From assembly GCA_964016885.1 (NCBI GenBank), contig OZ024745.1:23374001-23438000 (forward strand): a stretch of 64,000 nucleotides of DNA. The letters run 5' to 3'. This document shows, one piece after another, positions 46,099-47,635 of this stretch (position 1 is its first letter; each line of letters begins with the position of its first letter). Under the pieces are notes generated by a model. The model saw only the letters and a list, made by a program, of their open reading frames with translations. It made no database searches and was not told where the DNA came from. The position numbers were made by a program, and so were the translations under genes. This DNA is from Eledone cirrhosa (taxonomy: Eukaryota).

Positions 46099-46134
<36 letters not shown>

Positions 46135-46301
46135 ATCGAAGAAAGCTTTTTAGCGATACTCCGGCCAAATTCCAACTCACTCAACAAACACTAGGAAATA
46201 AGTGAATATATTCCCAATTATGCGTTCGGGGTGCTAACTAAAAGTATTGCGTGGAAAATTGGCTGTATTATTTCATATGAGACATATCTAATATATCTCT
46301 T

Positions 46302-46428
46302 CCCAGACGGACGTCTCGTTTCATTACAGGATTCCTACAATTTGGGTGAAATTATACCAATTTATGTAGGAGCTTGTATACCATCAATAGATGTATATTC
46401 AAGTGGGCTCCTATAATTCATCAGTGGG
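46302..46428 (-). ncRNA. Hammerhead ribozyme with 95-nt branched stem II
   Basis: Minus: CCCA-CTGATGA-ATTATAGG...CCTGTAAT-GAA-ACG agacgtc CGT-C-TGGG. Confidence 0.75.
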
Positions 46429-47282
46429 TGCCCCAATAATACTAATATTGATAATATAACTAACATCAGTATTTAGCGATAATTATCATCCTCTGTTCCT
46501 GAGGTATCTGTCAGGTTGCCAGTCCAGCAGTTTTAAAGAAGTGCTCAAACTGATTCAAAAAATGAGGAAGTAAATTACCGCCAAAAAAAACAATACATGC
46601 GCATGACAATGAATTCTGAAAGGAATTCAGGCCACGTGCTAAGAACTCAATTGGAAATTGAAAAAATATCTGTGTACAACATTTGATGACACACACAGAT
46701 TTTTTCTCGGGCAAAATAACAGAATGAGATATAAGGAACAATCAATATTCATATATAAAAAATAAACAAAGAAATGCTTTGAGTTCTTTACACGAGGAAT
46801 TGATATTGGTTTTGAAATAACTAATTAACCCGCATGTGTTTTATATTTTACTCTTAATTCGGCCGGAGATTTACATTCCCATTTGCCCTTTAAAGCATAA
46901 CTTTCCGTATTTACTACGGTTACGAGATGCGGTTTCTTAATCAGGTACAACCTCTGATTTTAGCCTAAGAAAATATCTATATGCGTGTGTAATTTATACA
47001 TGCATATATTTATTTTTTTAATTTCAATTGAGTTCTTAACACGTTGGATTGATAATGTTTTCGAAAAAACTGATTAACCCGCGTGTATATTATTATTTTT
47101 TTCCTCCTTCGTGGATCGTAGTTGTCTCCCCTTCCCGCTTAGTGACGCTATAATACTTCCTCAGACAAAAACTGCTGGAATTTCAAATTTGCCGGTCATT
47201 CGATGCGGGAAGGAGCAACTTAACAGACACGAATTTTAACTGCGGTAAGAAACATTTTTTCTTATATCAAAGTTTAATGGGC

Positions 47283-47407
47283 TTCCACTGATGATTTATA
47301 AGCACCCACCTAAATATATTCTTACATGAATGTATATTAGGCTTCTACATAAACTGGAAACATTCTCCGAATTTGTAGAAAACTTATAATGAAACAATTG
47401 TTTGGAA
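47283..47407 (+). ncRNA. Hammerhead ribozyme with 96-nt branched stem II
   Basis: TTCCA-CTGATGA-tTTATAAG...CTTATAAt-GAA-ACAATTGT-T-TGGAA. Confidence 0.7.
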
Positions 47408-47588
47408 AGAGAGGTATATTTTAACTTTAATTATATCTCATAAAATAATACAACTGGCTTTTCCAAATAATACATATTGTTAGCACCCCAAACACTTAAA
47501 TTGGGTTTATATTAAAATATAAACTAATGTTTGTTGAGTGAGATGGTTACCAGTCAGAGATTAGCTTTAAACTATCTCTGTTTTTGTA

Positions 47589-47635
<47 letters not shown>

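Follow-up and report, generated by a model that had tools for sequence, protein, structure and literature searches.

Descriptors of hammerhead ribozymes keep stem II short because this stem makes tertiary contact with stem I. Very long insertions that do not form hairpins have been rejected in hammerhead searches (PMC10085705), and 235 Rfam hammerheads are reported for squid (PMC6962438). The closest described carriers of such ribozymes in animals are the metazoan non-LTR retrozymes (PMC7229834) and the Penelope-like elements (PLEs) of the Hydra clade, which are defined in PMC8557442 by RWK-like and DKT motifs, a CxCx5C linker, CxxC and CxH motifs in the C-terminal endonuclease, insertion at (TA)n and a 3' hammerhead. 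According to PMC4209133, type I hammerheads form dimers through stem III, and Schistosoma carries pairs of ribozymes on opposite strands that lie 100-700 bp apart; as reported by Li et al., one of nine retrozyme dimers cleaved (bioRxiv 10.64898/2026.07.22.740005).

The locus described in this study is a 1465-nt segment of a 64,000-nt stretch of Eledone cirrhosa DNA (hereafter the window, in whose numbering all positions are given unless a locus is named). A first-pass annotation had presented it as a non-coding segment between (TA)n tracts, with inverted homologous ends of about two-thirds identity and an outward-facing hammerhead ribozyme in each, and had offered two readings, a single element or the fusion of two sister families. 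The description is borne out, as (TA)n tracts flank the segment (Table 1), no ORF of at least 100 aa overlaps it and the arms align at 70% over 276 nt; among the two readings, the single element is abandoned and the head-to-head meeting of two sister families is retained. The novelty of the locus sits in the ribozyme, which has a conserved branched stem II with a GGGC/GCCC helix. The reading that we favour, with moderate confidence, is that two truncated sister copies (L and R) landed successively, facing opposite ways, in a single (TA)n tract, and that each comes from what is likely a retrozyme family copied by a Hydra-type Penelope enzyme and carrying a branched hammerhead predicted to cleave itself.

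Table 1. Positions of the L and R copies, their predicted ribozymes and the flanking sequences in the window.
Feature	Position	Strand	Remarks
Hydra-clade Penelope-like element (by motifs), 5'-truncated	42277-46102	-	RT 44508-45544; GIY-YIG-type C-terminal part 43873-44550
(TA)14 target tract	46103-46130	.	common to the L arm and the short end of the neighbouring Hydra element
Family L copy, 5'-truncated, 648 of ~705 nt	46131-46778	-	3' end at the standard site of the family
L conserved 3' region	46137-46190	-	near-invariant motif from 46190; terminal hairpin 46163-46137, directly before the insertion end
L type I hammerhead	46302-46433	-	predicted cut after C46306 (GUC)
L hammerhead, pieces	GGGC 46433-46430; stem I 46428-46425 with 46305-46302; core 46424-46418	-	
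L hammerhead, branched stem II	46417-46323	-	GCCC inside at 46408-46405; then GAAA 46322-46319
Head-to-head junction L/R, blunt	46778-46779	.	no (TA)n, no microhomology
Family R copy, 5'-truncated, 817 of ~1000 nt	46779-47595	+	3' end at the standard site of the family
R type I hammerhead	47279-47407	+	palindromic stem III; predicted cut after U47402 (GUU)
R hammerhead, pieces	GGGC 47279-47282; stem I 47283-47287 with 47403-47407; core 47288-47294	+	
R hammerhead, branched stem II	47295-47390	+	ACCC at 47304; GAAA 47391-47394
R conserved 3' region	47528-47580	+	motif from 47528; terminal hairpin 47555-47580
(TA)21 target tract	47594-47636	.	
Host array, ~100-bp palindromic units with (TA)n between	47616-48181	.	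resumes on the far side at 40218-42268

Composition of the segment and its repeat families

When the whole segment was used as a query, its sole full-length match was itself, and the next-best matches covered only its positions 649-1465, at 96-97% (39 scored of 4294 candidates); the left 648 nt retrieved a family of their own, L (40 scored of 2353 candidates). The single-element model is contradicted by the fact that the arms occur elsewhere only apart, the partner arm being absent from all 29 other R loci and all 29 other L loci. A query laid across the junction was spanned by no locus other than the window (40 scored of 1865 candidates); two matches that reached further (L071 and L072) proved to be plain R copies aligned through an internal duplication. 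Contigs from four sequencing runs cover both arms piecewise, no listed piece crosses the junction, and they are not evidence either way. Judged by sequence, the segment is not one two-armed element but a back-to-back arrangement of two sister non-coding repeats, each present as a 5'-truncated copy, and its two-armed look is a minor feature that probably arose by chance. The units of the families measure ~705 nt (L), 743 nt (R2) and ~1000 nt (R, including an internal duplication of ~250 nt, part of which is kept in the window copy, where 46779-46849 resembles 47028-47099 at 82%). The arms differ by 1.6% (L) and 2.5% (R) from the majority sequences of their families, show no head-to-tail repetition themselves, and are each shorter than one unit with one ribozyme; they are therefore unable to release a unit.

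The L/R segment and the neighbouring Hydra-clade element are both hosted by the palindromic array at 40218-42268 and 47616-48181, whose unit ends we take to resemble Tc1/mariner inverted repeats. Elsewhere in the window, satellites of 89 bp (64 copies, 98% alike) and 22 bp (180 copies) lie at 17799-23489 and 35093-39060, an ORF fragment at 50728-51387 looks by eye like LINE reverse transcriptase, and a compact hammerhead with a 7-bp stem I, a 15-nt stem II and ATGCGTAT as stem III is found on the minus strand at 32583-32616. A near-perfect head-to-head insertion of another family, with unequal ends, at ~48960-49460 carries two hammerheads (C3 at 49054, minus, and at 49273, plus; 36-nt stem II; stem III ATGCGCAT).

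L and R belong to one non-coding clade, whose copies have a constant 3' end at (TA)n, are truncated at the 5' end and form short tandems. A 19-base 3' motif of the clade has 7,126 exact matches in the genome and the GGGC-core-GCCC-GAAAC pattern has 3,323 (control 0 in both cases), and a third family, T, was found beside an L copy (2351 candidates), with further variants also turning up. Where the 3' end is not read through, it falls at one site in 46 of 47 cases for L and 53 of 57 for R, immediately behind a conserved hairpin, and the 3' end of the unit lies ~175-190 nt beyond the predicted cut. TA is present at the 3' end in 81 of 88 rows and at the 5' end in 61 of 88 (some rows represent the same locus). 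Insertion lengths range from 0.3 to ~5 units, and head-to-tail units occur in L030, L116, L117 and L128, with joins that contain no coding remnant. The L and R families code for no protein, have a GC content under 50% and show no LTR layout; a target-site duplication of more than 4 bp is not readable for insertions inside (TA)n. This combination of a fixed 3' end, variable 5' truncation, partial tandems and a (TA)n target is the Penelope-type pattern, with the optional Penelope features absent, as L/R have a single end site instead of a two-site tail and gave no inverted pair of one family among 29 neighbour pairs. The top-scoring loci are biased towards long copies, and the 30 loci selected by pattern are free of that bias.

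Divergence is 1.8% within R arrays compared with 3.3% between them. The corresponding values for L are 3.0% within arrays and 3.2% among unlinked copies; L tandem units are thus about as divergent as unlinked copies and therefore give no support for copying round one circle. Some insertions (L002, L014, L016, L021, L034, L039, L046, L050, L056 and L057) are almost exactly one unit long and start at a TA-like unit junction, which may point to a single passage round a circle, to joining by microhomology or to a selection bias of the top matches. A metagenome scan gave 61 pattern matches, none of which fit the covariance model at E up to 1, and these were taken as chance.

The branched stem II and the GGGC/GCCC helix

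A descriptor scan of the window recovered both full hammerhead cores where the first-pass annotation had placed them. The plus motif has C3 at 47288, H17 (U) at 47402, a stem I of 5 bp, a stem II span of 96 nt and ACAATTGT as stem III, and the minus motif has C3 at 46424, H17 (C) at 46306, a stem I of 4 bp, a stem II span of 95 nt and a GACGTC loop in stem III. Among 2000 dinucleotide shuffles of the 1465-nt segment, one motif was found in a single shuffle and two motifs in none. RNAfold shows the two internal hairpins that had been proposed for the stem II insert in both arms, and every compensatory pair that had been listed between the arms is present; the listing is amended in that stem II of R starts with a U-U mismatch and in that the centre of symmetry is at 46778/46779, not at the midpoint. 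It had overlooked two complementary tetranucleotides, GGGC immediately 5' of stem I and GCCC in the junction beyond stem II, the latter mutated from the family GCCC to ACCC at 47304 in this R copy. The expectation that descriptors limiting the length of stem II would miss the motif holds for Rfam, which returned no hammerhead among 104 matches up to E 10 over 44000-50000 and none at gathering score on four family loci.

The two-hairpin layout, the 95-97-nt length of stem II and GGGC/GCCC are kept across families that are only 67-75% alike, with a stem of 7-8 bp that opens into a junction bearing the two hairpins and the single-stranded GCCC. When family majority sequences built from 138 copies were compared across four families, 9 of 9 core columns, 55 of 74 paired columns and 17 of 56 unpaired columns were invariant. 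Covariation was assessed in an alignment of 12 sequences from L, R, R2, R3 and T with 37 proposed pairs (444 cells), in which 96% of the cells are standard pairs compared with 37-50% when the partners are slid. Six pairs are compensated: hairpin A has two of them, and stem I, stem II, hairpin B and stem III have a single one apiece. The cell count was reached in none of 500 shuffles and the pair count in 42, with the structure drawn from the same sequences and kinship ignored. A larger alignment with 24 double-changed pairs was set aside, as its rows had been fitted to the model, some of its matches are weak and many rows were selected by GGGC/GCCC. The covariation is real, but it reflects selection on separate families and not on a two-armed element. 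Outside the ribozyme, the terminal hairpin of R carries a G-C/A-U change relative to that of L.

The L and R hammerheads are predicted self-cleaving ribozymes, and their palindromic stem III is computed to pair with itself at -8.8 to -16.1 kcal/mol. An intron within the stem II insert was considered and rejected, as no GT-AG pair is common to all families (by eye). Natural deletion variants that keep the core intact were also observed as single copies, which have lost most of hairpin B or much of hairpin A (L301 1064-1198, minus, and G000:C1:76579686).

Support for the GGGC/GCCC helix comes from invariance (8 of 8 columns in four families) and not from covariation. Genome pattern searches found no subfamily with a compensated helix; two such searches gave nine matches each, of which 16 in all were register artefacts and two were single copies (L321 and L327) with a G-C to A-U double change that is within chance. 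In pseudoknot-free folding, a nested GGGC/GCCC hairpin is more stable than the active fold, by 3-7 kcal/mol in R, Rb, R2 and T and by only 0.8 kcal/mol in L, where the lowest fold is another hairpin. We lean slightly towards GGGC/GCCC acting as a folding lock that would keep a lone ribozyme off. It is possible, if less probable, that it instead forms an activating pseudoknot by which stem I docks with stem II; the lock is favoured over docking because stem I offers 4 bp against the 8 bp of stem II, a geometry that in our judgement suits docking poorly.

Proposed replication cycle, candidate helper and probable origin of the junction

The predicted circles fold with z-scores of -8.4 (L), -6.7 (R2) and -8.5 (R), compared with control values of -2.3 for L antisense, -7.9 for L minus the ribozyme, -3.3 for the Hydra 3' region and -0.2 and +1.7 for coding sequence (15 shuffles each), and these computed values point to selection on the sense RNA over the whole unit. 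A replication cycle may be proposed in which a tandem source array would be transcribed and the hammerhead would cut ~175-190 nt upstream of the unit end, perhaps aided by palindromic stem III pairing of two ribozymes, as published type I behaviour suggests. GGGC/GCCC would form first, as a hairpin round the CUGAUGA core, and would be released by dimer pairing or by protein binding that favours the active fold. The unit-length RNA, self-paired on the sense strand only according to the computed folds, would then probably be circularised. A Hydra-type RT/endonuclease would nick (TA)n, and copying would begin at a fixed site behind the conserved hairpin, the end being fixed in the copies seen and the enzyme presumed. 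Copying would extend over 0.3 to ~5 units, the lengths seen in the genome, before the 5' end was joined to the other side of the break, and at this locus the 5' join of the second copy would have removed the TA bases separating L and R.

The helper of L/R is likely a Hydra-type Penelope element, and the neighbouring element represents the candidate type. The neighbour at 42277-46102 is assigned to the Hydra clade by its motifs, as five intact copies of its family carry RWR, DKT, CNCRDRSKC (CxCx5C), CDLC (CxxC) and CKH (CxH); Pfam recognised neither its RT nor its endonuclease. The window copy changes frame at a run of G near 44520, repeats its own 3' end in inverted orientation (562 bp, 98.6%) and has hammerheads of its own with a 31-nt stem II (C3 at 42462, minus, and at 46004, plus). 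The family is large, with 71,475 candidates, and very young (150 candidates were scored, with protein 99-100% identical); it has intact ORFs of 745-747 aa and shares the (TA)n target with L/R. Its ends fall 11:11 at two sites 79 nt apart, and such a two-site tail is tied in PMC11167929 to two RT start sites. L/R do not have this signature, so another enzyme could move them, and their similarity to the 3' end of the neighbour is not significant (13 and 86 of 200 shuffles score as high). No autonomous carrier of the branched ribozyme was found, L143, L146, L312 and L231, which were examined in full, all being separate insertions, and there was no ORF-linked copy among the loci examined.

The genome contains 7,644 other motifs with a stem II of 80-110 nt (control 11). 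Thirty of these were fetched, and all 26 that pass the stem I filter are unbranched single long hairpins of unrelated sequence; for 10 of these loci, a match to a Hydra-like endonuclease lies upstream on the same strand. Because long arms are common in the genome and many lie behind Hydra-like ORFs, the branched form is read as an elaboration within a long-arm Hydra-type ribozyme radiation. The unbranched long-arm hammerheads (L180-L209, L109, L110) comprise several families and often occur as head-to-head pairs.

For the junction, sequential insertion is preferred to a single two-template event, in which a Penelope protein dimer would have started synthesis from the two ends of a single (TA)n break, with L RNA and R RNA as templates, and the cDNAs would have been end-joined. 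Such an event, which would leave the families and the ribozyme as described, seems to us somewhat unlikely. It would account for a blunt join without TA (5' TA being kept in 61/88 rows), for 3' ends that both lie in (TA)n with the host array intact on either side, and for arms of similar age (1.6% vs 2.5%); in addition, same-family head-to-head insertions lie on both sides (42277-46102 and ~48960-49460), and the anole Penelope protein, a predicted dimer, extends both DNA strands in vitro according to PMC11167929. However, genuine two-armed insertions here stop at two sites (11:11) whereas both L/R arms stop at one standard site, L/R are not seen two-armed with themselves, and chance stacking is enough to explain the junction. 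The 175 distinct clade ribozymes include 29 neighbour pairs, of which the sole head-to-head one is that of the window and none is a head-to-head pair of a single family; among the first 100 listed matches to the 3' motif there are seven close same-strand pairs and no opposite-strand pairs within 3 kb (by eye), and different subfamilies are stacked in the same orientation within a single (TA)n tract (L139 1-1957, L326 1490-2560). A rough estimate from 7,000-10,000 copies, 0.5-3.5 million TA tracts and roughly 15% of 5' joins without TA gives 0.3-4 blunt head-to-head pairs expected by chance per genome.

It is doubtful that the stem II insert is merely tolerated, with the branched domain and GGGC/GCCC having no catalytic role and serving, for example, as protein-binding or promoter sequence. 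Long arms do arise easily, as the 7,644 other motifs and the 26 unrelated single hairpins among those folded indicate, and the anole element inserts in vitro without hammerhead cleavage (PMC11167929), but the retention of layout, length and GGGC/GCCC across such divergent families and the compensations in both hairpins speak against mere tolerance. A bolder extension of the preferred reading, which we regard as improbable, would make this a hammerhead class with a built-in switch, formed by the branched stem II and GGGC/GCCC and off until units pair or Penelope protein binds, in a clade of 0.7-1-kb circular-RNA parasites with more than 7,000 copies, and would see in the locus one Penelope complex copying two RNAs onto the two ends of one break. 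Very unlikely is the suggestion that L/R do not replicate as RNA units but are either satellites at the DNA level or 3' ends that came loose from an autonomous Penelope family yet to be discovered: the 10 of 26 long stem-II loci with an upstream endonuclease match on the same strand would fit, but the head-to-tail joins lack coding remnants, the whole unit is structured on one strand, and the four loci with an upstream Hydra-like ORF end are separate or unlinked (L143, L146 and L312; L178, where the match is on the other strand). Finally, one self-contained two-armed element with both ribozymes selected, which the inverted homology and the outward-facing ribozymes between TA tracts might suggest, is scarcely credible given that no second copy exists among the scored candidates and that each arm matches a large family of its own at an unremarkable 96-97%.

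Comparison with known systems

In the openly accessible literature that our search covered, we found neither a natural hammerhead whose stem II is branched and similarly large nor any cephalopod retrozyme. Approximately 11,000 motifs with a stem II of 80-110 nt are present in the genome (3,323 with the branched pattern and 7,644 others) and none was found by Rfam where it was run, so hammerhead counts in animal genomes, and claims that some Penelope families are without hammerheads, may be low. In addition, the branched form, with its covariation and its mutable helix, suits a test of the question raised in PMC7229834 of what stops the recutting of a retrozyme circle.

On sequence characters, L/R are likely metazoan non-LTR retrozymes, which they resemble in having units that are non-coding, low in GC and arranged head to tail, with a type I hammerhead and a short palindromic stem III in each (PMC7229834, bioRxiv 10.64898/2026.07.22.740005). 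They further resemble the axolotl HHR_Amex2 in the U-U at the base of stem II, and retrozymes in the strongly self-paired predicted circle (bioRxiv 10.64898/2026.07.22.740005, PMC7229834). Their units of 700-1000 nt compare with 170-450 nt for invertebrates, within an overall range given as 150-450 nt, and a consensus of up to 972 bp for vertebrates, as published in the same two sources. L/R differ from the retrozymes described there in the branched stem II of 95-97 nt, in GGGC/GCCC, and in their dispersed short (TA)n insertions with one fixed end.

With the hammerheads of Hydra-clade PLEs, L/R share a stem I of 4-7 bp, an unpaired or U-U start of stem II, a very short stem III, a location near the 3' end and (TA)n (PMC8557442). 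However, stem II in the listed Hydra motifs is a single hairpin of ~10-25 nt, the longest tabulated being ~55 nt (PLE-X1_sMoe; PMC8557442, File S2), and L/R, unlike these elements, lack an ORF, a tail and an inverted arm of their own. Similarly, the inverted pLTR of one Penelope-like element consists of near-identical arms flanking an RT-endonuclease ORF, whereas the arms here are 70% alike, come from two families and flank no ORF.

The GGGC/GCCC helix recalls the pseudoknotted hammerheads, approximately 40% of whose representatives in PMC3088659 have a Watson-Crick helix of 4-6 bp linking the stem I and stem II sides; Perreault et al. (2011) report there that docking of stem I with stem II can be brought about by helices of this kind and that U10.1-U11.1 starts can function. 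Those ribozymes are compact, as described in that source, whereas the partner strand in L/R lies in a multibranch junction 8 bp out on stem II and faces a stem I of 4 bp. The discontinuous Clec2 hammerheads offer a further likeness, in that a large loop insertion hides the motif from patterns (PMC2950038); the search that revealed them permitted insertions in either of loops 1 and 3 and concerned host mRNAs, while L/R carry a structured, covarying insertion in stem II and belong to a mobile repeat.
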